From: a virus
DNA length: 11,191 bases
UHGV virus genome: UHGV-1786984
Strand: one strand, 5' to 3'
The notes beneath the pieces are model-generated. The model ran no database searches. It was not told the origin of the DNA and saw only the letters and a list, made by a program, of their open reading frames with translations. Shown here piece after piece: positions 141 through 11,191 of this stretch. Made by a program: the position numbers and the translations under genes. Numbering within the stretch: the first letter of the stretch is position 1; the number at the start of each line of letters is the position of its first letter.

Positions 141-386
141 CAGTGATGACGCTCAATCTCGTTGAAAAACAGCCAGCAGCTATGCGCCGGATAATTGGTA
201 AGCATCTGGCCGTCCCTCGCTGGCAGGAGACATGCGATTATTATAATCAGATGATGGAAGGAAATGACAGTGATGACGCTCAATCTCGTCGAAAAACAGC
301 CAGCAGCTATGCGCCGGATAATTGGCAAGCATCTTGCCGTCCCTCGCTGGCAGGAGACATGTGATTATTATAATCAGATGATGGAG
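133..386. repeat. Tandem direct duplication, period ~127 bp, two copies (about 133-259 and 260-386), 4 mismatches between copies
   Basis: Read directly: the string gaaatgacagtgatgacgctcaatctcgt...ttataatcagatgatgga occurs twice head-to-tail. Copies differ at 4 positions (gtt/gtc, ggt/ggc, ctg/ctt, tgcgat/tgtgat). The period is not a multiple of 3. Confidence 0.9.
137..364 (+). pseudogene. Duplicated 5' fragment of gene B: first ~41 codons of B, then out of frame to a stop at 362-364
   Basis: ATG at 137 (and in-frame ATG at 131) with SD-like GGAGGG at 124-129. The N-terminus MTVMTLNLVEKQPAAMRRIIGKHLAVPRWQETCDYYNQMM matches the downstream full-length ORF, then diverges (EGNDSDDAQSRR...) because the 127-bp repeat shifts the frame by +1. 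Confidence 0.4.
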
Positions 387-764
387 CGCGAACGGCTAAC
401 GGTTTGCTTTCATGCGCAGTTAAAACAACGTCACGCAACGATGCGTTTTGAAGAAATGAACGACGTCGAACGTGAACGGCTGGTTTGTGCAATTGATGAA
501 TTGCGTGGGGCATTCTCAAAACGCCGTCAGGTTGGCGCAAGTGAGTATGCATATATTAGTTTTTTAACAGTCAGTCAGCGTCGTACTTTATTTATGCATG
601 CCGGATTGACTGAAAAAGAATTCAACCAGCCATACTGGCGAATTAATGAAGAATTATGTTACTGGCGTGATGCTTTATTCCGTGCATTACGTGAATTATT
701 CAGCCTGTTTGAGTATGCACCGACAATTCTGACGTCGGTAAAACCAGAGCAATATCTGCATTAA
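264..764 (+). CDS. B: P2 gpB-like DNA replication protein (helicase-loader-type accessory protein), 166 aa
   Basis: Complete 166-aa ORF, matching the recalled length of P2 B. Position immediately upstream of the small-ORF cluster and gene A fits P2 early operon order. Sequence identity to P2 B is from memory, not computed. Confidence 0.7.
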   Translation: MTVMTLNLVEKQPAAMRRIIGKHLAVPRWQETCDYYNQMMERERLTVCFHAQLKQRHATMRFEEMNDVERERLVCAIDELRGAFSKRRQVGASEYAYISFLTVSQRRTLFMHAGLTEKEFNQPYWRINEELCYWRDALFRALRELFSLFEYAPTILTSVKPEQYLH

Positions 765-1578: not shown

Positions 1579-1850
1579 GTATTCGTATTGAAATTGGCGA
1601 ACGTTATGTCGTTACCAGTGACAGCTTTCAGTTTATTCTCCACGAGAAAAAGAGAGCGGAAAGCGGTAAAAACGCCGGTCAGGAATGGCTGGCAGTGGTT
1701 GGTTATTACCCGAAATTAAGCCAGCTCGTTTCCGGCCTGATGCATCACGATATTCTGACCGGAAGCGCAAAATCTTTTGCTGATTTAAACGCGCAGGTTG
1801 AGCAACTCAGCAAGCGTTGTTCAGAGGCTTTTGGCTCACATGGACGTTAA
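1575..1850 (+). CDS. Small early-operon hypothetical protein (P2 orf83-like by position), 91 aa
   Basis: ATG at 1575 with GGAGA upstream. Ends TAA 1848-1850, overlapping the proposed gene A start at 1840. Confidence 0.6.
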   Translation: MSIRIEIGERYVVTSDSFQFILHEKKRAESGKNAGQEWLAVVGYYPKLSQLVSGLMHHDILTGSAKSFADLNAQVEQLSKRCSEAFGSHGR

Positions 1851-4122
1851 AGCCTCCGGGCGTTTTGTCCCTCCGTCAGCATTTGCCGCAGGCACCGGTA
1901 AGACGTTTACCGGTGCTTATGCATGGAACGCGCCACGCGAGGCCGTCGGGCGCGAAAGACCCCTTACACGTGACGAGATGCGTCAGGTGCAAGGTGTTTT
2001 ATCCACGATTAATCGCCTGCCTTACTTTTTGCGCTCGCTGTTTACTTCACGCTATGACTACATCCGGCGCAATAAAAGCCCGGTGCACGGGTTTTATTTC
2101 CTCACATCCACTTTTCAGCGTCGTTTATGGCCGCGCATTGAGCGCGTGAATCAGCGCCATGAAATGAACACCGACGCGTCGTTGCTGTTTCTGGCAGAGC
2201 GTGACCATTATGCGCGTCTGCCGGGGATGAATGATAAGGAGCTGAAAAAGTTTGCCGCCCGTATCTCATCGCAGCTTTTCATGATGTATGAGGAACTCTG
2301 CGATGCATGGGTTGATGCGCATGGTGAAAAAGAATCGCTGTTTACGGATGAGGCGCAGGCTCACCTGTATGGTCATGTTGCTGGCGCTGCACGTGCTTTC
2401 AATATTTCCCCGCTTTACTGGAAAAAATACCGTAAAGGACAGATGACCACGAGGCAGGCATATTCTGCCATTGCCCGCCTGTTTAACGATGAGTGGTGGA
2501 CTCATCAGCTTAAAGGTCAGCGTATGCGCTGGCATGAAGCGTTACTGATTGCTGTCGGGGAGGTCAATAAAGACCGTTCTCCTTATGCCAGTAAACATGC
2601 CATTCGTGATGTGCGTGCGCGCCGCCAGGCAAATCTGGAATTTCTTAAATCGTGTGACCTTGAAAACAGGGAAACCGGCGAGCGCATCGACCTTATCAGT
2701 AAGGTGATGGGCAGTATTTCTAATCCAGAAATTCGCCGGATGGAGCTGATGAACACCATTGCCGGTATTGAGCGTTACGCCGCCGCAGAGGGTGATTTGG
2801 GGATGTTTATCACGCTGACCGCGCCGTCAAAGTATCACCCGACACGTCAGGTCGGAAAAGGCGAAAGTAAAACCGTTCAGCTTAATCACGGCTGGAACGA
2901 TGAGGCATTTAATCCAAAGGATGCGCAGCGTTATCTCTGCCGTATCTGGAGTCTGATGCGCACGGCATTCAAGGATAATGATTTACAGGTCTACGGTTTG
3001 CGTGTCGTCGAGCCACACCACGACGGAACGCCGCACTGGCATATGATGCTTTTTTGTAATCCACGCCAGCGTAATCAGATTATCGAAATCATGCGTCGCT
3101 ATGCGCTCAAAGAGGATGGCGACGAAAGAGGAGCCGCGCGAAACCGTTTTCAGGAAAAACACCTTAACCGGGGCGGTGCTGCGGGGTATATCGCGAAATA
3201 CATCTCAAAAAATATCGACGGCTATGCACTGGATGGGCAGCTCGATAACGATACCGGCAGACCGCTGAAAGATACTGCCGCGGCTGTTACCGCATGGGCG
3301 TCAACGTGGCGCATTCCGCAATTTAAAACGGTTGGCCTGCCGACAATGGGGGCTTACCGTGAACTACGCAAATTGCCTCGCGGCGTCAGCATTGCTGATG
3401 AGTTTGACGAGCGCGTCGAGGCTGCACGCGCCGCCGCAGACAGTGGTGATTTTGCGCTGTATATCAGCGCGCAGGGTGGGGCAAATGTCCCGCGCGATTG
3501 CCAGACTGTCAGGGTTGCCCGTAGCCCGTCGGATGACGTTAACGAGTACGAGGAAGAAGTCGAGAGAGTGGTCGGCATTTACGCGCCGCATCTCGGCGCG
3601 CGTCATATTCATATCACCAGAACGACGGACTGGCGCATTGTTCCGAAAGTGCCGGTCGTTGAGCCTTTGACTTTAAAAAGCGGCATCGCCGCGCCTCGGA
3701 GTCCTGTCAATAACTGTGGAAAGCTCACCAGTGGTGATACTTCGTTACCGGCTCCCACACCTTCTGAACACGCCGCAGCAGTGCTTAATCTGGTTGATGA
3801 CGGTGTTATCGAATGGAATGACCCGGAGGTCGTGAGGGCGCTCAGAGGTGCATTAAAACACGGTCGGAGAACGCCAAATCGTCAGCAAAGAAACGGAAGC
3901 TCGTTAAAACCACATGAAATTGCACCATCGGCCAGACTGGCCCGGTCGGAACGAATGCAAATTACCCGTATCCGCGTTGACCTTGCTCAGAACGGTATCA
4001 GGCCGCAGCGATGGGAGCTTGAGGCGCTGGCGCGTGGTGCGACCGTAGATTACAACGGGAAAAAATTTACGTATCCGGTCGCTGATGAGTGGAGTTGGTT
4101 TTATTGTTATTCAGAGCAATAA
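1840..4122 (+). CDS. A: Rolling-circle replication initiator endonuclease, P2 gpA family (HUH superfamily), ~760 aa
   Basis: Long ORF. HUH-type metal-binding motif in PHWHMMLF and a paired-tyrosine catalytic motif in YIAKYISKNIDGY (phiX174 gpA / P2 gpA class). First ATG is at 1840 (the track ORF starts at an upstream TTG at 1798); from 1840 the length is close to the recalled P2 A length. Ends TAA 4120-4122. Confidence 0.9.
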   Translation: MDVKASGRFVPPSAFAAGTGKTFTGAYAWNAPREAVGRERPLTRDEMRQVQGVLSTINRLPYFLRSLFTSRYDYIRRNKSPVHGFYFLTSTFQRRLWPRIERVNQRHEMNTDASLLFLAERDHYARLPGMNDKELKKFAARISSQLFMMYEELCDAWVDAHGEKESLFTDEAQAHLYGHVAGAARAFNISPLYWKKYRKGQMTTRQAYSAIARLFNDEWWTHQLKGQRMRWHEALLIAVGEVNKDRSPYASKHAIRDVRARRQANLEFLKSCDLENRETGERIDLISKVMGSISNPEIRRMELMNTIAGIERYAAAEGDLGMFITLTAPSKYHPTRQVGKGESKTVQLNHGWNDEAFNPKDAQRYLCRIWSLMRTAFKDNDLQVYGLRVVEPHHDGTPHWHMMLFCNPRQRNQIIEIMRRYALKEDGDERGAARNRFQEKHLNRGGAAGYIAKYISKNIDGYALDGQLDNDTGRPLKDTAAAVTAWASTWRIPQFKTVGLPTMGAYRELRKLPRGVSIADEFDERVEAARAAADSGDFALYISAQGGANVPRDCQTVRVARSPSDDVNEYEEEVERVVGIYAPHLGARHIHITRTTDWRIVPKVPVVEPLTLKSGIAAPRSPVNNCGKLTSGDTSLPAPTPSEHAAAVLNLVDDGVIEWNDPEVVRALRGALKHGRRTPNRQQRNGSSLKPHEIAPSARLARSERMQITRIRVDLAQNGIRPQRWELEALARGATVDYNGKKFTYPVADEWSWFYCYSEQ

Positions 4123-4238
4123 ACATCTGATTTAATTTGTTGCATAATAGTAAAATTGCTGTTTATCTACATGTGTTAACTATTGATAATTATGTTGCTA
4201 ATAATGTGTGCAAATTTATACTGAAAAAGGTGAAAACG
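4123..4238 (+). promoter_or_regulatory. AT-rich intergenic region upstream of the cargo module; likely holds its own promoter and RBS (AAGGTG 4227-4232)
   Basis: Abrupt shift to AT-rich sequence right after the gene A stop, with several -35-like and -10-like hexamers (ttgcat near 4140, gataat 4185-4190, tgctaataat 4196-4205). Exact -35/-10 pairing could not be fixed by eye. Confidence 0.35.
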
Positions 4239-5123
4239 ATGAATGATATCTTTGTTCTTACAAGGGAAGAGCTTGAAACACTAGATTATAGTGTTTTTAT
4301 GCATATACCAGTTACATTTCATGCACATAAAATAAAAAAATATCTGGATGGGATTGCTGAATCATCAGGAAACCCCAAAGAGAAAAAATTAGCATCTCTT
4401 TTTGGTATGCTATATAGTTTCAATTTGCAAGTTGTTAACAACACTCCATCATTTGAACCCCAAATGATTTGGGGTAATAAAAGATCAATATTGTCTGAAG
4501 ATTTTGATGAGCAGGTGAATGACTGTCTTTTATATGTTTCTCAAAAAATAACCAATCCATTTTTGTTATCAAGAATATATGATGTTGTTTGGTGTAATAA
4601 CCGGAAAAACAAAGACGTGGCAATTAAAGCAATTGATTCCTATGCTGAAATGCTAAATATAGCAATTGAAAAACTAATAATAAAAAACGAAAGCATGGAT
4701 GAAAGTGATTTAAATTGCTTTATTTTTGCTCGTGATTATATTGCTAGGGCTTTGCACATTAATAAAATGGTCTACCCTAGAAAATCAGAAGGAAACATGG
4801 CGATTAAAAATGCCATTCATTCTCTTTATAGTATTCAAAATGAAAGATTAATCTTTGAAGGTTTCAATAATTTGACTTGGTTTATGGTGCGTGATTTTGA
4901 TGGGTATAATCTGCAGTATGCGGAAAATGCTGAGAAGATGGCTGAGCAGCATAAAGATAAAAAATATTATGATGCTGTAAAATCACTTTATATGACAAGT
5001 GCAGTTATTTATGAAAAAATGGTGAGTATGAACGTGCCAAGAGATGTAAACTGGCATCTGCAAATATTACTATTAAAGTTGCAACAGATCGACCTGATAA
5101 TATGGGTAAGATCTCTTGGTTAA
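4239..5123 (+). CDS. Cargo gene 1: hypothetical protein of unknown function, 294 aa from first ATG; AT-rich, foreign composition
   Basis: First ATG at 4239 with AAGGTG 6 nt upstream; the track ORF starts at an in-frame TTG at 4137. Codon usage is A/T-rich, unlike flanking phage genes. No motif recognised by eye. Overlaps the next ORF by 22 nt. Confidence 0.7.
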   Translation: MNDIFVLTREELETLDYSVFMHIPVTFHAHKIKKYLDGIAESSGNPKEKKLASLFGMLYSFNLQVVNNTPSFEPQMIWGNKRSILSEDFDEQVNDCLLYVSQKITNPFLLSRIYDVVWCNNRKNKDVAIKAIDSYAEMLNIAIEKLIIKNESMDESDLNCFIFARDYIARALHINKMVYPRKSEGNMAIKNAIHSLYSIQNERLIFEGFNNLTWFMVRDFDGYNLQYAENAEKMAEQHKDKKYYDAVKSLYMTSAVIYEKMVSMNVPRDVNWHLQILLLKLQQIDLIIWVRSLG

Positions 5124-6070
5124 GAACAGCTATCTCTGAATTAAGACAGTATGGTGGTGATAGCCAACAGATAGAAGATTTAAAGGAACAACTTGCTAAT
5201 TTGAGAGAAGAAGTAAGGAGTGAATATGTCACTTTAAGCCATTCTATTGATATTAGTGACTTGGTTGCTGAAAGTGAAAAAAAACTGACGGGGCGTTCTT
5301 TGCCCGATATATTCAAAGTTTTAATGCGTGAAACACCGATTGAAAATATTGAAAGCATGAGGGAGCAAGTTTTAAGATTATCAGAAAAAAGTTTATTCTC
5401 TAGTTTTGTTGGAACAGAAATTAATGATGAGAGTGGGCGTAAGGTATATACAATCCCGCCGTTGAATAATAAAAAAGATATGAGTGATGATGTTGTTATT
5501 GATCAATATCTAAGAAATTTCGAGATTACTCATAAGATTTTTGTAAACGGTGTCTTTGAACCTGCTCGCTATGTACTTTCTCAAGAACATGGCTTGACGT
5601 TGTCAACATTCGTTAAATTAGTTACAACTAGTCCAATTGTCAAGCCGGAGTTTAGGGAGATTTTTAATTTGGGCTTTTACAAATTATGGCAGGGAGATTA
5701 CATCAGTGCAGCTTATCTTTTAATACCACAAATGGAAGGTATGGTTCGTTATTATTATGAGCTTAGTGGAAAGGATGCTACTAGATATTTGGATAAGGGA
5801 TTAGAGGAGTCAACAAGTATTTCTCAGCTTCTAGATAAATGCAGAGATGATTTGGAAAGTATCTTTTCTAAGAATCTTGTTTTAACTATCGATGTTCTTT
5901 TTAATAGAAAGAGTGGGGCAACCTTAAGACATAAATTAGCACATGGTAATTTATATACTAATGCTTGTTACGATGAAACAACGACATATGCATGCATCCT
6001 GATTTTCTTTCTGTGTGCTTATCCTCTCCTACCATATTTTGATACTGTATTTGAACAGGGCTCTGTTTGA
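5102..6070 (+). CDS. Cargo gene 2: hypothetical protein with C-terminal HEPN-like R-x4-H motif (candidate RNase/abortive-infection effector), 322 aa
   Basis: ORF from ATG 5102, in the -1 frame relative to cargo gene 1, no obvious SD. C-terminal ..NRKSGATLRHKLAHGNLY.. has Arg (5927-5929) and His (5942-5944) spaced R-x4-H as in HEPN (Abi_2/AbiD/AbiF-like) domains. Same AT-rich composition. May be a separate gene or the 3' part of a frameshifted single gene. Confidence 0.65.
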   Translation: MGKISWLRTAISELRQYGGDSQQIEDLKEQLANLREEVRSEYVTLSHSIDISDLVAESEKKLTGRSLPDIFKVLMRETPIENIESMREQVLRLSEKSLFSSFVGTEINDESGRKVYTIPPLNNKKDMSDDVVIDQYLRNFEITHKIFVNGVFEPARYVLSQEHGLTLSTFVKLVTTSPIVKPEFREIFNLGFYKLWQGDYISAAYLLIPQMEGMVRYYYELSGKDATRYLDKGLEESTSISQLLDKCRDDLESIFSKNLVLTIDVLFNRKSGATLRHKLAHGNLYTNACYDETTTYACILIFFLCAYPLLPYFDTVFEQGSV

Positions 6071-6221
6071 TAACGTATACGTTGAGGCATAAAACCTATG
6101 CATACTTAGCTGCATCAATTTGCACGAGGTATTTCAGTATGCATTTTCTGCGTAATAGTAGGGATTGCTTGGTTTGGTAGTTGTAATTCAACTGCATTCA
6201 AACCGACCCATGAAGCGGGCG

Positions 6222-6240
6222 GGCGAGGCGGGGAAAGCAC
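6222..6240. other. cos site: 19-nt P2-type cohesive-end sequence GGCGAGGCGGGGAAAGCAC (phage genome ends joined)
   Basis: Exact string ggcgaggcggggaaagcac at 6222-6240, matching the recalled P2 cohesive end. Location between the right-end cargo region and portal gene Q is where P2 cos lies. Confidence 0.7.
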
Positions 6241-6391
6241 TGCGCGCTGGCGGTGGTGCTGATTTTATTTTTTCAGCGTCTCAGCGCGTCGTAATGGCGT
6301 TTAGATTGTGCGCCGGGGCGTTGGTGTGTCTGCGGGCTGTTTTGTGCGGTGGTGAGCGTGTGAGGGCGTGATGACGGGATGTAAAAAAGCC

Positions 6392-6414
6392 TAAAAAAGC
6401 CGCCCGCAGGCGGC
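6392..6414 (-). terminator. Rho-independent terminator of the P-Q late operon
   Basis: On the - strand, 5 nt after the Q stop: GC-rich hairpin GCCGCC-TGCG-GGCGGC (plus 6399-6414) followed by a U-run (plus-strand A-run 6393-6398). Confidence 0.55.
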
Positions 6415-6419
6415 GATGT

Positions 6420-7454
6420 TCAGTCGTTGTCAGTGTCCAGTGAGTAGTTTTTAAAGCGGATGACCTCCTGACCGAGCCAGCCGTTTATCTCGCGGATCCT
6501 GTCCTGTAGCGGGATAAGCTCATTGCGGACAAAGACCTTTGCCACTTTCTCAATATCGCCCAGTGACCCGACGTTCTCCGGCTTGCCACCCATCAACTGA
6601 AAGGGGATGCGGTGTGCGTCCAGCAGGTCAGCGGCGCTGGCTTTTTTGATATTAAAAAAATCGTCCTTCGTCGCCACTTCACTGAGCGGGATAATTTTAA
6701 TGCCGTCGGCTTTCCCCTGCGGGGCATAGAGAAACAGATTTTTAAAGTTATTGCGGCCTTTCGACTTAACCATGTTTTCGCGAAGCATTTCGATATCGTT
6801 GCGATCCTGCACGGCATCGGTGACGTACATGATGTATCCGGCATGTGCGCCATTTTCGTAATACTTGCGGCGGAACAGCGTGGCCGACTCATTCAGCCAG
6901 GCAGAGTTAAGGGCGCTGAGATATTCCGGCAGGCCGTACAGCTCCTGATTAATATCCGGCTCCAGCAGGTGAAACACGGAACCGGGCGTGAAAGGTGTCG
7001 GCTCGTTGAAGGACGGCACCCACCAGTAAACATCCTCTTCCACACCACGGCGGGTATATTTTGCCGGTGAGGTTTCCAGTCTGATGACCTTACCGGTGGT
7101 GCTGTAACGCTTTTCCAGAAACGCATTACCGAACACCAGAAAATCCAGCACAAAGCGGCTGAAATCCTGCTGGGAAAGCCACGGGTGCGGGATAAACGTT
7201 GAAGCCAGAATATTACGTTTGACGTAAATCGGTGAGCTGTGATGCACGGCAGCACGCAGGCTTTTTGCCAGACCGGTAAAGCTGACCGGCGGCTCATACC
7301 ATCTGCCGTTACTGATGCATTCGACGTAATCCAGAATGTCACGGCGGTCGAGTACCGGCACCGGCTCACCAAAGGTGAATGCCTCCATTTTCGGGGCGCT
7401 GGCAGTCATTGTTTTTGCCGCAGGTTGCGGTGTTTTCCCTTTTTTCTTGCTCAT
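6420..7454 (-). CDS. Q: Portal protein, P2 gpQ family, 344 aa
   Basis: 344-aa ORF on - strand (MSKKKGKTPQPAAK...), matching recalled P2 Q length and its position next to cos. Start ATG (7452-7454) overlaps the P stop by 1 nt (TGATG). Confidence 0.9.
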   Translation of the reverse strand: MSKKKGKTPQPAAKTMTASAPKMEAFTFGEPVPVLDRRDILDYVECISNGRWYEPPVSFTGLAKSLRAAVHHSSPIYVKRNILASTFIPHPWLSQQDFSRFVLDFLVFGNAFLEKRYSTTGKVIRLETSPAKYTRRGVEEDVYWWVPSFNEPTPFTPGSVFHLLEPDINQELYGLPEYLSALNSAWLNESATLFRRKYYENGAHAGYIMYVTDAVQDRNDIEMLRENMVKSKGRNNFKNLFLYAPQGKADGIKIIPLSEVATKDDFFNIKKASAADLLDAHRIPFQLMGGKPENVGSLGDIEKVAKVFVRNELIPLQDRIREINGWLGQEVIRFKNYSLDTDND

Positions 7455-9226
7455 CAGTAAAACTCCAGAATGGTGGATGTCAGCGGGGTGCTGATACCTG
7501 CGGTGAGTGGCTCATTTAACAGGGCGTGCATGGTCGCCCAGGCGAGGTCGGCGTGGCTGGCTTCCTCGCTGCGGCTGGCCTCATAGGTGGCGCTGCGTCC
7601 GCTGCTGGTCATGGTCTTGCGGATAGCCATAAACGAGCTGGTGATGTCGGTGGCGCTGACGTCATATTCCAGACAGCCACGGCGGATAACGTCTTTGGCC
7701 TTGAGCACCATTGCGGTTTTCATTTCCGGCGTGTAGCGGATGTCGCGCGCGGCGGGATAGAACGAGCGCACGAGCTGGAACACGCCGACACCGAGGCCGG
7801 TGGCATCAATACCGATGTATTCGACGTTGTATTTTTCGGTGAGTTTGCGGATGGATTCCGCCTGAGTGGCAAAGTCCATGCCTTTCCACTGGTGACGCTC
7901 AAGTATTCTGAATTTGCCACCGGCCACCACCGGCGGTGCCAGCACCACGCATCCGGCGCTGTCGCCACGGTGTGACGGGTCGTAACCAATCCATACCGGG
8001 CGGGAGCCGAACGGATTCGCGGCAAACGGCGCATAGTCTTCCCATTCTTCCAGCGTGTCGACCATGCAGCGTTGCAGCTCCTCGAACGGGAACACCGACG
8101 CCTTGTCGTCAACAAATTCACACATGAACAGGTTTTTAAAATCGTCGGCGCTGTTTTCACGTTTGAGCTGCTCAATGTCGAACAGCGTGCAGCCGCCTTT
8201 CAGGGCGTCCTCAATGGTGACAATCTGCCGCCACTGGCCGTCCGCACAGAGAAGCCCGCTGGCAAGGGCGTTATGACTGACGTCGATTTCCACACGTTCG
8301 GCGGCGCTGGCGCGTCCCCGGTTGAACAGTTCACCCGACCAGAACGGGTAGGCGTCGTGCGCCAGCGTGGACGGGGTGGAGAAATAGGTCGAGCGCAGGT
8401 GACTCTGTGAGGCCATACCTGATGCCACCTTACGCAGTACCTGAAAATTCGGGATCCAGAAAATCTCGTCGACGTACAGGTCGCCGTTATGGCTCTGTGC
8501 GGTGTTGGAGTTGGTGCCGAGAAAAATCAGTTTTGCGCCGTTATTGCCCAGGACAATCGGGTCACCGGTCAGGTCAACGTCAACCAGCCGGGCAAAGGCG
8601 ATGATGTATTCGCGGAACACATACGCCTGCGTTTTACTGGCCGACAGAAAAATCTGGTTATGACCGGTTTTCAGGGCGCGCAGCAGCGCCTCGCGGGAAA
8701 AATAAAACGTCGCGCCAATCTGGCGGGATTTCAGGATATCGCGGATGCGGTGCTCAAGCCCGGCGCGATACCAGTGCAACTGATATTCGAAAGACTGCTC
8801 AAAGAAAATCTGCTCCAGCTTTTCGATGGCCTCGTCACTGAAAAAATTCTTTTTCGGTTTGCGACGCCCGCCTTTGTTGCGGTTAGCGACGTTCGGATTA
8901 AGGTCTGCCTCGTTGCCGGTCTGACTGTAGCGGTTTACCCGTGCCAGTCGTTCAATCTGGCGTCCGAGCAGGTCAATTTCCTTGAAGTCACCGCCGGTTT
9001 TCTGCGGTTTGATGATGAGCTGGGTCAGCCGCGCTTCCAGGCTCATTTCGACACGGCTGATGGGGGCAACGCTGTCCCAGCCGTCGCGCTGTTTCCAGCT
9101 CTGCACCGTCGGGCGTTTCATCTGCAACATGGCGGCAATCTGCGGCACGGAAAATCCCTGCCAGTACAGCAGCGCCGCCTGACGACGCGGGTCGTGTAAA
9201 AGAGTGGTGTCTGTGGTGATGGTCAT
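7454..9226 (-). CDS. P: Terminase ATPase (large) subunit, P2 gpP family, 590 aa from ATG at 9224-9226
   Basis: Long - strand ORF upstream of Q. First ATG gives MTITTDTTLLHDPRRQ... with GAGG-containing SD upstream; the track ORF extends 10 codons further to a non-ATG start. Length fits recalled P2 gpP. Confidence 0.9.
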   Translation of the reverse strand: MTITTDTTLLHDPRRQAALLYWQGFSVPQIAAMLQMKRPTVQSWKQRDGWDSVAPISRVEMSLEARLTQLIIKPQKTGGDFKEIDLLGRQIERLARVNRYSQTGNEADLNPNVANRNKGGRRKPKKNFFSDEAIEKLEQIFFEQSFEYQLHWYRAGLEHRIRDILKSRQIGATFYFSREALLRALKTGHNQIFLSASKTQAYVFREYIIAFARLVDVDLTGDPIVLGNNGAKLIFLGTNSNTAQSHNGDLYVDEIFWIPNFQVLRKVASGMASQSHLRSTYFSTPSTLAHDAYPFWSGELFNRGRASAAERVEIDVSHNALASGLLCADGQWRQIVTIEDALKGGCTLFDIEQLKRENSADDFKNLFMCEFVDDKASVFPFEELQRCMVDTLEEWEDYAPFAANPFGSRPVWIGYDPSHRGDSAGCVVLAPPVVAGGKFRILERHQWKGMDFATQAESIRKLTEKYNVEYIGIDATGLGVGVFQLVRSFYPAARDIRYTPEMKTAMVLKAKDVIRRGCLEYDVSATDITSSFMAIRKTMTSSGRSATYEASRSEEASHADLAWATMHALLNEPLTAGISTPLTSTILEFY

Positions 9227-9399
9227 GAATACCTCGCCGTGATGAATACACGGCAAGGCTACTGAGTCGCGCCCCGCGATTCGCTAAGGTGCTGTTGTGT
9301 CAGTGATAAGCCATCCGGGACTGATGGCGGAGGATGCGCATCGTCGGGAAACTGATGCCGACATGTGACTCCTCTAATCACTATTCAGGACTCCTGACA
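9227..9399. promoter_or_regulatory. Divergent intergenic region between P (-) and O (+); expected site of the two late promoters (activator-dependent in P2)
   Basis: 173-bp gap between divergent late operons, as in P2. An exact TGT-N12-ACA activator dyad was searched by eye and not found, so element positions are unresolved. Confidence 0.4.
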
Positions 9400-10207: not shown

Positions 10208-11191
10208 ATGCGCCAGGAAACCCGCTTTAAATTTAATGCCTACCTGTCCCGTGTTGCCGAGCTGAACGGCATCGACGCCGGTGATGTGTCGAAAAAATTC
10301 ACCGTTGAACCGTCGGTCACCCAGACCCTGATGAACACCATGCAGGAGTCCTCTGACTTTCTGACCCGCATCAACATTGTGCCGGTCAGCGAAATGAAAG
10401 GGGAAAAAATTGGTATCGGTGTCACCGGCTCCATCGCCAGCACCACCGACACCGCCGGTGGCACCGAGCGTCAGCCGAAGGACTTCTCGAAGCTGGCGTC
10501 CAGTAAGTACGAATGCGACCAGATTAACTTCGATTTTTATATCCGCTACAAAACGCTTGACCTGTGGGCGCGTTATCAGGATTTCGAATGCGACCAGATT
10601 AACTTCGATTTTTATATCCGCTACAAAACGCTGGACCTGTGGGCGCGTTATCAGGATTTCCAGCTCCGTGTCCGTAACGCCATTATCAAACGCCAGTCCC
10701 TTGATTTAATCATGGCCGGTTTTAACGGCGTGAAGCGTGCCGAAACCTCTGACCGCAGCAGCAATCCGATGCTGCAGGATGTGGCGGTCGGCTGGCTGCA
10801 GAAATACCGCAATGAAGCCCCGGCGCGCGTGATGAGCAAGGTCACTGACGAGGAAGGCCGCACCACCTCTGAGGTTATCCGCGTGGGTAAGGGCGGTGAT
10901 TATGCCAGCCTTGATGCACTGGTGATGGATGCGACCAACAACCTGATTGAACCGTGGTATCAGGAAGACCCTGACCTTGTGGTGATTGTGGGGCGTCAGT
11001 TACTGGCGGACAAGTATTTCCCCATCGTCAACAAGGAGCAGGACAACAGCGAGATGCTGGCCGCTGACGTCATCATCAGCCAGAAACGCATCGGCAACCT
11101 GCCAGCGGTACGCGTCCCGTACTTCCCGGCGGATGCGATGCTCATCACGAAGCTGGAAAACCTGTCCATCTACTACATGGATGACAGCCAT
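10208..11191 (+). CDS. N: Major capsid protein, P2 gpN family; 5' partial (328 codons, runs off the window end)
   Basis: ATG 10208 with CAGGA upstream; frame open to the last base of the window (MRQETRFKFNAYLSRVAELNG...YYMDDSH). Absent from the ORF track because no stop lies in the window. Follows O as in P2. Confidence 0.85.
   Translation, partial: MRQETRFKFNAYLSRVAELNGIDAGDVSKKFTVEPSVTQTLMNTMQESSDFLTRINIVPVSEMKGEKIGIGVTGSIASTTDTAGGTERQPKDFSKLASSKYECDQINFDFYIRYKTLDLWARYQDFECDQINFDFYIRYKTLDLWARYQDFQLRVRNAIIKRQSLDLIMAGFNGVKRAETSDRSSNPMLQDVAVGWLQKYRNEAPARVMSKVTDEEGRTTSEVIRVGKGGDYASLDALVMDATNNLIEPWYQEDPDLVVIVGRQLLADKYFPIVNKEQDNSEMLAADVIISQKRIGNLPAVRVPYFPADAMLITKLENLSIYYMDDSH
10511..10660 (+). 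repeat. In-frame 75-bp tandem duplication inside gene N (2 copies, 1 synonymous mismatch), duplicating ECDQINFDFYIRYKTLDLWARYQDF
   Basis: Read directly: gaatgcgaccagattaacttcgatttttatatccgctacaaaacgct[t/g]gacctgtgggcgcgttatcaggatttc occurs twice head-to-tail (10511-10585, 10586-10660). 75 = 25 codons, in frame with N. Confidence 0.9.

Follow-up and report, generated by a model that had tools for sequence, protein, structure and literature searches.

The window analysed here, the whole 11,191-nt stretch of the viral genome UHGV-1786984, contains two consecutive open reading frames on the same strand, ORF1 (294 aa) and ORF2 (322 aa), that overlap by 22 nt in a -1 frame relationship. This arrangement raises the question of whether the interval 4239-6070 holds one gene that was split by a frameshift, one gene that is decoded by frameshifting, or two genes with coupled translation. 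The evidence presented below indicates that it is very probably a single frameshifted gene that has recently lost its function, as opposed to a pair of genes or a recoding element. On this reading, the features of the locus are as follows.

1840-4122, plus strand: P2 replication endonuclease gpA, bordering the hotspot on the left, as annotated in S88, KE50 and 569R9; Pfam Phage_GPA is found in related loci
4239-5018, plus strand: 5' portion of the split gene, with codons 1-260 for a 610-aa protein, with DUF7380 and the first TPR-like helices
5014-5019, plus strand: site of the frame change, where intact alleles have A7 and the window has A6, hence a 1-nt contraction by allele comparison
5015-6070, plus strand: 3' portion of the gene, in the -1 frame and open from 5015, with the codons for residues 260/261-610 and the stop
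5019-5123, plus strand: out-of-frame ORF1 tail by translation, 34 missense codons (MVSMNVPRDVNWHLQILLLKLQQIDLIIWVRSLG) followed by TAA 5121-5123
5102-5104, plus strand: the ATG called as the ORF2 start, lacking a Shine-Dalgarno sequence, an internal codon (Met289) of the intact protein
5277-5284, plus strand: second slippage-prone tract, A8, intact in the window and frameshifted in other strains
5927-5944, plus strand: R564-HKLA-H569, an R-x4-H motif of HEPN type and predicted catalytic site within the DUF4209-like C-terminal domain
6222-6240, plus strand: 19-nt cos cohesive-end sequence (GGCGAGGCGGGGAAAGCAC, exact match), the right border of the hotspot
6420-7454, minus strand: P2 gpQ portal gene, by annotation

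Reading frames and the site of the frame change

ORF1 begins at TTG 4137 or, more likely, at ATG 4239, which is preceded by a likely ribosome-binding site (AAGGTG, 4227-4232) and coincides with the RefSeq-annotated start in Escherichia coli S88. It ends at TAA 5121-5123, and ORF2 extends from ATG 5102 to 6070 in the -1 frame (5102 mod 3 = 2, versus 0 for ORF1). A preliminary description of this DNA had reported the 22-nt overlap, the ORF1 stop, the ORF2 start and the lack of a Shine-Dalgarno sequence at ATG 5102 (upstream sequence CAGATCGACCTGATAATATG), all of which were reproduced from the sequence, as was the shared composition of the two ORFs (approximately 33% GC in both halves versus 53-56% in the flanks). 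The same description had the ORF2 frame opening only at 5099, behind a TGA at 5096-5098, and this part did not hold. The bases at 5096-5098 are GAT, and the TGA nearby occupies 5095-5097 in the third frame. The last stop in the ORF2 frame is TGA 5012-5014, and the frame is open from 5015 onward (...SYL, stop, KNGEYERAKRCKLASANITIKVATDRPDNMGKISWL...), giving an overlap of the two open frames of 109 nt (5015-5123) as opposed to 25. The lesion had likewise been placed too far downstream, at 5095-5125, when the frame in fact changes approximately 80 nt upstream, at the A6 run 5014-5019.

This run is A7 in all 55 complete E. coli genomes that carry the gene, as well as in Peduovirus phage vB_EcoM-569R9 and in 5/5 JGI metagenome contigs, and the A7 version is a single 1833-nt CDS encoding 610 aa. 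The earlier suggestion that an ancestral gene of about 600 codons was split by a 1-bp indel is thus borne out by near-identical alleles that are single CDSs, one A longer, in 55/55 complete genomes. Relative to S88, FDAARGOS_1261 and KE50, the missing A is the sole indel in the gene, and the S88 gene (99.8% identical DNA) shows just two differences, T4494C and the additional A of the run. T4494C is a missense change, and no further inactivating lesion is found when the gene is compared with that of S88, its closest intact allele. The peptide spanning the junction in the full-length product is AVIYEKNGEYER; a scan of GTDB species representatives did not return the junction sequence, and as this set holds one genome per species the scan is uninformative.

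In the proposed mechanism, the A7 tract would have been contracted to A6 in the window, most likely through replication slippage. A ribosome starting at ATG 4239 would then leave the native frame after Lys260, read the 34 missense codons and stop at 5121, so that the remaining 350 codons would lie in the -1 frame and ORF2 would be this remainder counted from the internal Met289. The interval 5015-5101 encodes conserved residues 261-288, which are contained in neither annotated ORF; within it N261, A267, C270, A275, T278, I279, V281 and N283 are conserved in the homologue alignment, and M289 itself is nearly invariant among the 20 aligned homologues. The out-of-frame tail of ORF1 (5019-5123) matches neither the PDC-S39 profile nor any of these 20 homologues.

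Profile searches follow the same pattern. The repaired product matches the PDC-S39 profiles of PADLOC from end to end (PDLC05012, positions 8-599 of 615, E 1e-83; PDLC05011, E 2e-84) and phrog_5183 over positions 1-612 of 612. ORF1 residues 7-261 align with profile positions 8-252 of PDC-S39. Read from 5015, the ORF2 frame aligns with positions 253-599, a match that is restricted to 305-599 until 5015-5101 is included. Such seamless coverage of one profile by two frames across the A run indicates that the arrangement is not a product of chance.

Homologues, domains and genomic setting

The preliminary description proposed an alignment of homologues as a means of deciding between one gene and two. 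That alignment yields single fused proteins throughout, in 20/20 diverged homologues as well as in the 55/55 near-identical alleles. The diverged homologues, at 48-67% identity, are all single proteins of 606-626 aa, and approximately 130 of the best 150 family representatives (of 3358 matches) are single proteins of 600-660 aa that match end to end. In Klebsiella, Enterobacter and Kosakonia, the homologues likewise occupy the gpA-to-portal interval as a single gene; for P0005, no contig could be located. The two-component system with coupled translation that had been offered as one reading of the overlap is therefore refuted by homologues that are single long ORFs.

Judged by its sequence, the protein comprises an N-terminal DUF7380, central TPR-like repeats and a C-terminal DUF4209/HEPN-like region with an invariant R-x4-H motif. 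The DUF7380 assignment covers residues 4-184 (133.4 bits versus a cut-off of 27, E 1e-38) and is matched in 20/20 homologues. Pfam DUF4209 scores 19.5 bits in this protein, below the gathering cut-off of 22.3, is matched at E<0.01 in 10/20 close homologues, and rises above the cut-off (24-30 bits) in more distant relatives (P0024, P0028, P0060, P0095, P0127 and P0130). The R-x4-H motif is invariant in 20/20 homologues. The C6orf70/DUF4209 family has been classed as HEPN, and according to Anantharaman et al. (2013; PMC3710099) its members frequently carry fused TPR repeats. The DUF4209-like C-terminal region, the invariant R-x4-H and the TPR-like repeats that precede it resemble the HEPN RNases of abortive infection and defence described there (PMC3710099). 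Unlike those enzymes, the present protein has a sub-threshold Pfam score, fold searches with the protein model did not recover a HEPN fold, and its activity is only predicted. Searches by sequence against solved structures gave insignificant matches only (best E 0.36), NCBIfam gave no match, and the literature searched for DUF7380, DUF4209, PDC-S39 or the protein accessions yielded no functional study. The intact protein is predicted to be a HEPN RNase of the abortive-infection type, with the N-terminal/TPR part sensing infection.

By its sequence matches, the gene is a member of the PADLOC candidate-defence family PDC-S39 (phrog_5183), itself a computational candidate family, for which an anti-phage role is a prediction only. 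The PDC-S39 gene of S88 (RefSeq WP_000997854.1, annotated as a DUF7380 domain-containing protein) encodes the same 610 aa at the same gpA-to-cos position; the window allele differs from it in lacking one A, in being split into two ORFs, and in carrying Ser in place of the nearly invariant Pro86. The cargo at 4239-6070 is 33% GC and lies between gpA and cos/portal, in flanks of 53-56%, and the right-hand border matches the 19-nt cos sequence given for P2-related phages (PMC3931495). The gene is thus low-GC cargo of the gpA-to-cos hotspot of a P2-like prophage, which is the site of tin/old in P2. Antiviral systems have been described as having a reservoir in the gpA-cos (tin/old) locus of P2 (Rousset et al., 2022, PMC9122126; a 2026 NAR study, PMC13586616), and like the cargo of that hotspot the present gene is accessory, low in GC and flanked by gpA and cos.

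Alternative readings of the split

One alternative is that the source DNA really carries A7 and an intact gene, and that the missing A is a homopolymer miscall of sequencing or assembly. This is considered because the comparison rests on assemblies as opposed to reads, and the conclusion that there is one gene holds either way. Homopolymers are classic sites of base-calling error, and A6 is found in 0/55 complete RefSeq E. coli genomes. The window also features two tandem duplications, one of 127 bp and one of 75 bp, both made up of two different alleles of one segment, which suggests an imperfect assembly; 127 is a common assembler k-mer size. A 105-bp deletion in gpO is a further irregularity. 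Against a miscall, three further assemblies carry A6, and they represent two haplotypes. In L004 and L005, which are independent metagenome assemblies from ENA, it is linked to the private T4494 SNP, as in the window, and in an unrelated E. coli isolate (L009, GCA_030481655.1) it sits on a haplotype 12 SNPs away that is otherwise identical to the A7 allele of FDAARGOS_1261. Over 9.9 kb, comparison with KE50 reveals no other homopolymer difference, the only indels being the missing A and a 10-bp duplication. Runs of A6 or A7 are, moreover, short enough for reliable short-read consensus. A miscall is accordingly improbable, and we infer that the lesion at 5014-5019 is biological.

The gene is also broken elsewhere. 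The A8 tract at 5277-5284 is contracted to A7 in E. coli CP164087.1 (L011), whereas Salmonella Muenster and three Logan runs (L012-L015) have it expanded to A9. In E. coli PE15 (L016) one extra base falls in the same interval, the tract length being inferred, and the gene has the 364+265-aa split of L012. Given A6 on two haplotypes and a second tract that is frameshifted in other strains, slippage has struck this AT-rich gene repeatedly.

Recurrence of this kind brings up a second possibility, namely that the A7 and A8 tracts together form a crude, reversible ON/OFF switch of a costly, prophage-borne HEPN abortive-infection gene. The OFF state would then have been captured in the window, in the other three A6 assemblies and in the variants with A7 or A9 at the second tract, lysogen populations would be a mixture of armed and disarmed cells, and the N-terminal DUF7380/TPR fragment might persist in OFF cells as a free product with its own role. 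Tract length is indeed polymorphic among natural isolates (A6/A7 at 5014-5019 and A7/A8/A9 at 5277-5284), A7 having shortened to A6 independently at least twice, on different haplotypes, and A8 having been both contracted and expanded, and the lack of further inactivating lesions in OFF alleles fits recent or reversible switching. Several observations nonetheless make such a switch quite improbable. Frameshifted alleles are rare in complete genomes, at 0/55 for the first tract and 1/55 for the second. The tracts are not conserved, as homologues at 54-64% identity lack the A8 tract and the A7 tract is broken in one of three, so there is no sign of a selected contingency locus. The A7 tract is simply the outcome of conserved Glu-Lys-Asn codons where GC content is 33%, and the nine A runs of >=6 in the gene are the number expected from its composition. 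Classical contingency loci have longer tracts than 7-8 nt.

A third possibility is that programmed -1 frameshifting or transcriptional slippage at the A6 run yields, by design, both a truncated N-terminal protein and the full-length protein. Known slippage sites include A-rich runs, as in dnaX and IS911, and the locus is like these -1 frameshift sites in having an A-rich run where two -1-related frames overlap. If tRNA-Lys slipped back by one base on A-AAA-A, or if RNA polymerase added an extra A, exactly the wild-type ...YEKNGEY... sequence would be restored. Unlike the dnaX and IS911 sites, the window has no zero-frame heptamer, stimulatory elements or conservation. The zero-frame codons are GAA AAA ATG, which contain no X XXY YYZ heptamer and allow only single-tRNA slippage. 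No Shine-Dalgarno-like (GGAGG-like) stimulator precedes the A6 run, and the fold of 5005-5110 (106 nt; -17 kcal/mol) is not significant relative to shuffled sequence (z = -0.58), which also counts against recoding. Efficient transcriptional slippage in E. coli needs runs longer than A6. There is no conserved two-frame architecture either, since relatives use a single frame. Recoding is therefore highly improbable, and the earlier proposal that the gene is decoded by frameshifting fails on the same grounds: no heptamer, no downstream structure and relatives in one frame.

A translationally coupled pair, consisting of an N-terminal DUF7380 protein and a separate HEPN protein, has a practically negligible chance of being correct: the same-strand 22-nt overlap, the shared composition and a few distant relatives of approximately 370-420 aa that consist of the C-terminal module alone, making a stand-alone C-terminal product conceivable, are outweighed by an ATG without a Shine-Dalgarno sequence and 19 nt upstream of the ORF1 stop, by a 34-residue non-homologous ORF1 tail and 28 conserved residues that fall between the ORFs, by splits that lie at different places in other strains and are also at homopolymers, and by the finding of one gene for every close or distant homologue examined in genomic context. 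The short relatives, in addition, retain a helix hairpin that is missing from ORF2.

Consequences of the split for a candidate defence gene

The break in the single frameshifted gene lies within the helical repeats, where it separates one predicted helix from the next as opposed to marking a domain boundary, and it cuts the N-terminal domain off from the predicted nuclease. With these two parts disconnected, the window allele most likely represents a recent loss of function, and the split allele is most likely inactive. The event itself is ordinary pseudogenisation.

Recognisable defence pseudogenes are rare in P2, at approximately 2% of pseudogenes (PMC13586616), and the window allele is one such rare case only if PDC-S39 is truly a defence gene. 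Homopolymer slippage has nonetheless inactivated this one candidate gene several times, at two tracts and on several haplotypes, in both E. coli and Salmonella, and these knockouts occur in the very locus where that survey found defence pseudogenes to be rare (PMC13586616). For annotation, two hypothetical proteins become one frameshifted PDC-S39/DUF7380 gene, and in counts of defence systems for this prophage the gene should be treated as probably inactive. The A6 isolate GCA_030481655.1 and FDAARGOS_1261 form a natural ON/OFF pair that differs by a single base, while the window and S88 form a second pair that is also set apart by one missense change. Both pairs would lend themselves to tests of whether PDC-S39 acts in phage defence and whether it has a fitness cost.

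A single gene split at an A run

The two overlapping ORFs of the low-GC cargo block, ORF1 and ORF2, are one gene in which an A7 tract has contracted, most likely a recent inactivation. The preliminary description had ORF1 ending at TAA 5121-5123 and ORF2 starting at ATG 5102 in the -1 frame, giving an annotated overlap of 22 nt, with no Shine-Dalgarno sequence upstream of that ATG, and the sequence bears out each of these points. It had also opened the ORF2 frame at 5099, after a TGA at 5096-5098; these bases read GAT, and the nearby TGA (5095-5097) belongs to the third frame. On translation, the ORF2 frame is open from 5015, after a TGA at 5012-5014, and reads KNGEYERAKRCKLASANITIKVATDRPDNMGKISWL..., with position 5015 falling within a six-A run (5014-5019). 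The open frames therefore overlap by 109 nt, starting exactly at the homopolymer, and the true site of the lesion is ~80 nt upstream of the interval originally flagged.

In the unedited window sequence, residues 7-261 of ORF1 (from ATG 4239) match positions 8-252 of the profile of PDC-S39, a PADLOC candidate-defence family, and the last 34 residues match neither this profile nor anything else. ORF2 matches positions 305-599 from its own ATG and positions 253-599 once the 29 preceding codons are added. The two matches thus cover the profile without a gap and change frame at the A run. In the window, only the ORF2 frame encodes residues 261-288, and it does so upstream of the ORF2 ATG. With one A inserted, the repaired 610-aa product matches PDC-S39 end to end (E 1e-84) as well as Pfam DUF7380 at residues 4-184 (E 1e-38) and, weakly, DUF4209 at residues 524-590. 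Its near-identical database relative P0001, natively 610 residues, aligns with positions 1-612 of 612 of phrog_5183.

Homologues, which the preliminary description had proposed aligning, come as single long ORFs and not as overlapping pairs. Twenty homologues of 48-67% identity from Kosakonia, Klebsiella, Enterobacter and metagenomes are all 606-626 aa long, and their alignment is strongly conserved across the junction (I257, Y258, E259, K260, N261, A267, C270, A275, T278, I279, V281, N283, M289). A profile search of 1.84 billion representatives returned 3358 relatives, and ~130 of the best 150 are full-length matches of 600-660 aa. Wherever a homologue's contig was fetched, the homologue is one gene lying between gpA and the portal gene of a P2-like prophage. 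The gene is also present in 55 complete E. coli genomes (megablast, query 4100-6300). In one of these, S88 (99.8% identical), it is a single 1833-nt CDS (WP_000997854.1, annotated 'DUF7380 domain-containing protein') whose only differences from the window within the gene are T4494C and an additional A in the run. With a 151-nt query over the run, the matching stretch was 152 nt long (or 150 nt where 149 nt aligned) in 55/55 genomes. All 55 therefore have A7, as do 5/5 JGI metagenome contigs; in the phage record ON470601 (vB_EcoM-569R9) the gene is intact. The tiling of one profile by the unedited ORFs and the single-gene relatives uphold the reading of a disrupted gene, and a pair of separate genes is refuted by homologues that are single genes.

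Origin and recurrence of the frameshift

The A6 lesion is probably biological rather than a miscall. By exact look-up, the window's ORF2 was found on two ENA metagenome contigs, L004 (labelled ZELL14) and L005, both of which have A6 and the window's T4494 variant, and the flanks of L004 differ from those of the window. A one-residue ORF2 variant (P0183) was traced to the E. coli isolate assembly GCA_030481655.1 (L009), which has the same split and A6 on a cargo haplotype that is 12 SNPs from the window and identical to the A7 allele of FDAARGOS_1261. A6 is thus found on two haplotypes, so the A7-to-A6 change occurred at least twice or was transferred on a tract of <424 bp. Over 9.9 kb, the missing A and a 10-bp duplication beside the gpQ terminator are the only indels of the window relative to KE50. 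The T at 4494 encodes Ser86, a nearly invariant position that is Pro (C) in 18/20 homologues and in every close E. coli allele examined; being common to the A6 contigs L004 and L005, T4494 marks the frameshifted haplotype.

A second tract, A8 at 5277-5284, is intact in the window but frameshifted in other strains. In E. coli CP164087.1 the tract is A7, and the gene reads as ORFs of 349 and 256 aa; Salmonella Muenster and three sequencing-run assemblies have A9, and E. coli PE15 has one extra base there and the same 364 + 265 aa split as the A9 cases. Slippage mutations have hit this gene repeatedly. Such recurrence could also be taken as phase variation via homopolymer tracts, which is very unlikely: mutation bias predicts recurrent hits in a gene of 33% GC with nine A runs of at least six, loss being tolerated, and the tracts are not kept in diverged homologues. 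The second is absent from them; the first stems from conserved codons for Glu-Lys-Asn, and a Klebsiella homologue has it interrupted (GAG AAA AAT). The set of A or T runs differs from one homologue to the next. Programmed frameshifting, raised in the preliminary description, is rejected, as the A run has no recoding signals: its zero-frame context is GAA AAA ATG, not X XXY YYZ, no Shine-Dalgarno-like stimulator is present, and the 106 nt downstream are folded no more stably than shuffled sequence (z = -0.58).

Prophage setting and other anomalies

The window covers part of a P2-like (Peduovirus) prophage.

Features of the window
264-764, gene B
1840-4122, early genes and gpA replication endonuclease
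4137-6070, low-GC block (33% GC vs 53-56% in flanks)
6222-6240, cos, 19 nt, GGCGAGGCGGGGAAAGCAC
6420-7454, minus strand, portal gpQ
7454-9256, minus strand, terminase gpP
then scaffold gpO and the start of capsid gpN

With gpA on one side and cos, whose sequence is confirmed as that given for P2-related phages (PMC3931495), on the other, the low-GC block occupies the gpA-to-cos accessory locus, a described hotspot of antiviral cargo (PMC9122126; PMC13586616) that holds tin/old in P2 itself. A 68-aa ORF (6165-6371) crosses cos and is probably no real gene; its counterpart in some relatives is annotated as a 65-aa hypothetical protein (e.g., WP_137491481.1). Within the last ~280 nt of gpA (3846-3952), 14 SNPs separate the window from L004 despite identical cargo genes, a cluster that looks like a recombination boundary adjoining the hotspot. 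In S88, MS7163, N53 and N62, the closest complete-genome relatives, an IS21-family ISEc12 insertion splits gpN (10791-13373 in S88, equivalent to about window 10697); these prophages have an intact cargo gene and a dead capsid gene, and the window is the reverse.

Further anomalies were judged relative to KE50, S88 and L009. A 127-bp tandem duplication (133-386), absent from all three, runs from the end of an orf78-like gene 123 nt into gene B; its copies differ at five positions, copy 2 being the S88 allele and copy 1 a different one. Its period is a common assembler k-mer size, so the duplication may not be biological but the result of two strain variants joined during assembly; if it is real, gene B no longer has its native ribosome-binding context upstream. 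A 75-bp in-frame tandem duplication in gpN (10510-10660) places 25 residues, ECDQINFDFYIRYKTLDLWARYQDF, twice, one copy being the S88 allele and the other that of KE50, and was found in none of the relatives examined. Since the two copies are different alleles of the same segment in both cases, the sequences suggest strain-variant assembly joins as much as prophage decay. Near the 3' end of gpO, a 105-bp in-frame deletion (10134/10135), flanked by GATGA microhomology, removes 35 residues (ETSQAF...GGGDAL), leaving 249 aa vs 284 aa in KE50 and S88. The 10-bp tandem duplication (6382-6391, TAAAAAAGCC twice), absent from KE50 and L004, adjoins a G+C-rich terminator-like hairpin (6399-6414) downstream of gpQ.

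Predicted protein and effect of the split

The protein consists of DUF7380, an all-helical TPR-like array and a DUF4209-like C-terminus. DUF4209 has been assigned to the HEPN superfamily and described as often TPR-fused (Anantharaman et al., PMC3710099); its score is sub-threshold in the window protein and above threshold in more distant relatives, and an R564-x4-H569 motif (5927-5944) is invariant among the 20 aligned homologues. Fold searches with the predicted model did not recover a HEPN fold because model confidence is low around this motif. The intact protein is a predicted abortive-infection-type effector, in which sensing or restraint would fall to the N-terminal and TPR part and execution to the predicted HEPN RNase. 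For PDC-S39, a computational candidate for which a literature search found no functional study, this role is a prediction only.

In the predicted structure, the frameshift would fall between two helices within the repeat array (residues 282/283, P0001 numbering), not at a domain boundary. A few distant relatives of about 367-421 aa (P0095, P0111, P0122, P0127, P0130 and P0137) contain only the C-terminal module, spanning profile positions of about 204/250-606 with DUF4209, and these gene calls suggest that the family is modular and varies in its N-terminal DUF7380 part. They retain a helix hairpin that ORF2 lacks. With the break inside the array and this hairpin missing, the split allele is most likely null.

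Inactivation by A7 contraction is an ordinary finding, and the gpA-to-cos locus reportedly has few recognisable defence pseudogenes (PMC13586616). Ultimately, it makes possible the correct annotation of the cargo gene and supplies natural single-base ON/OFF allele pairs of a candidate defence gene.
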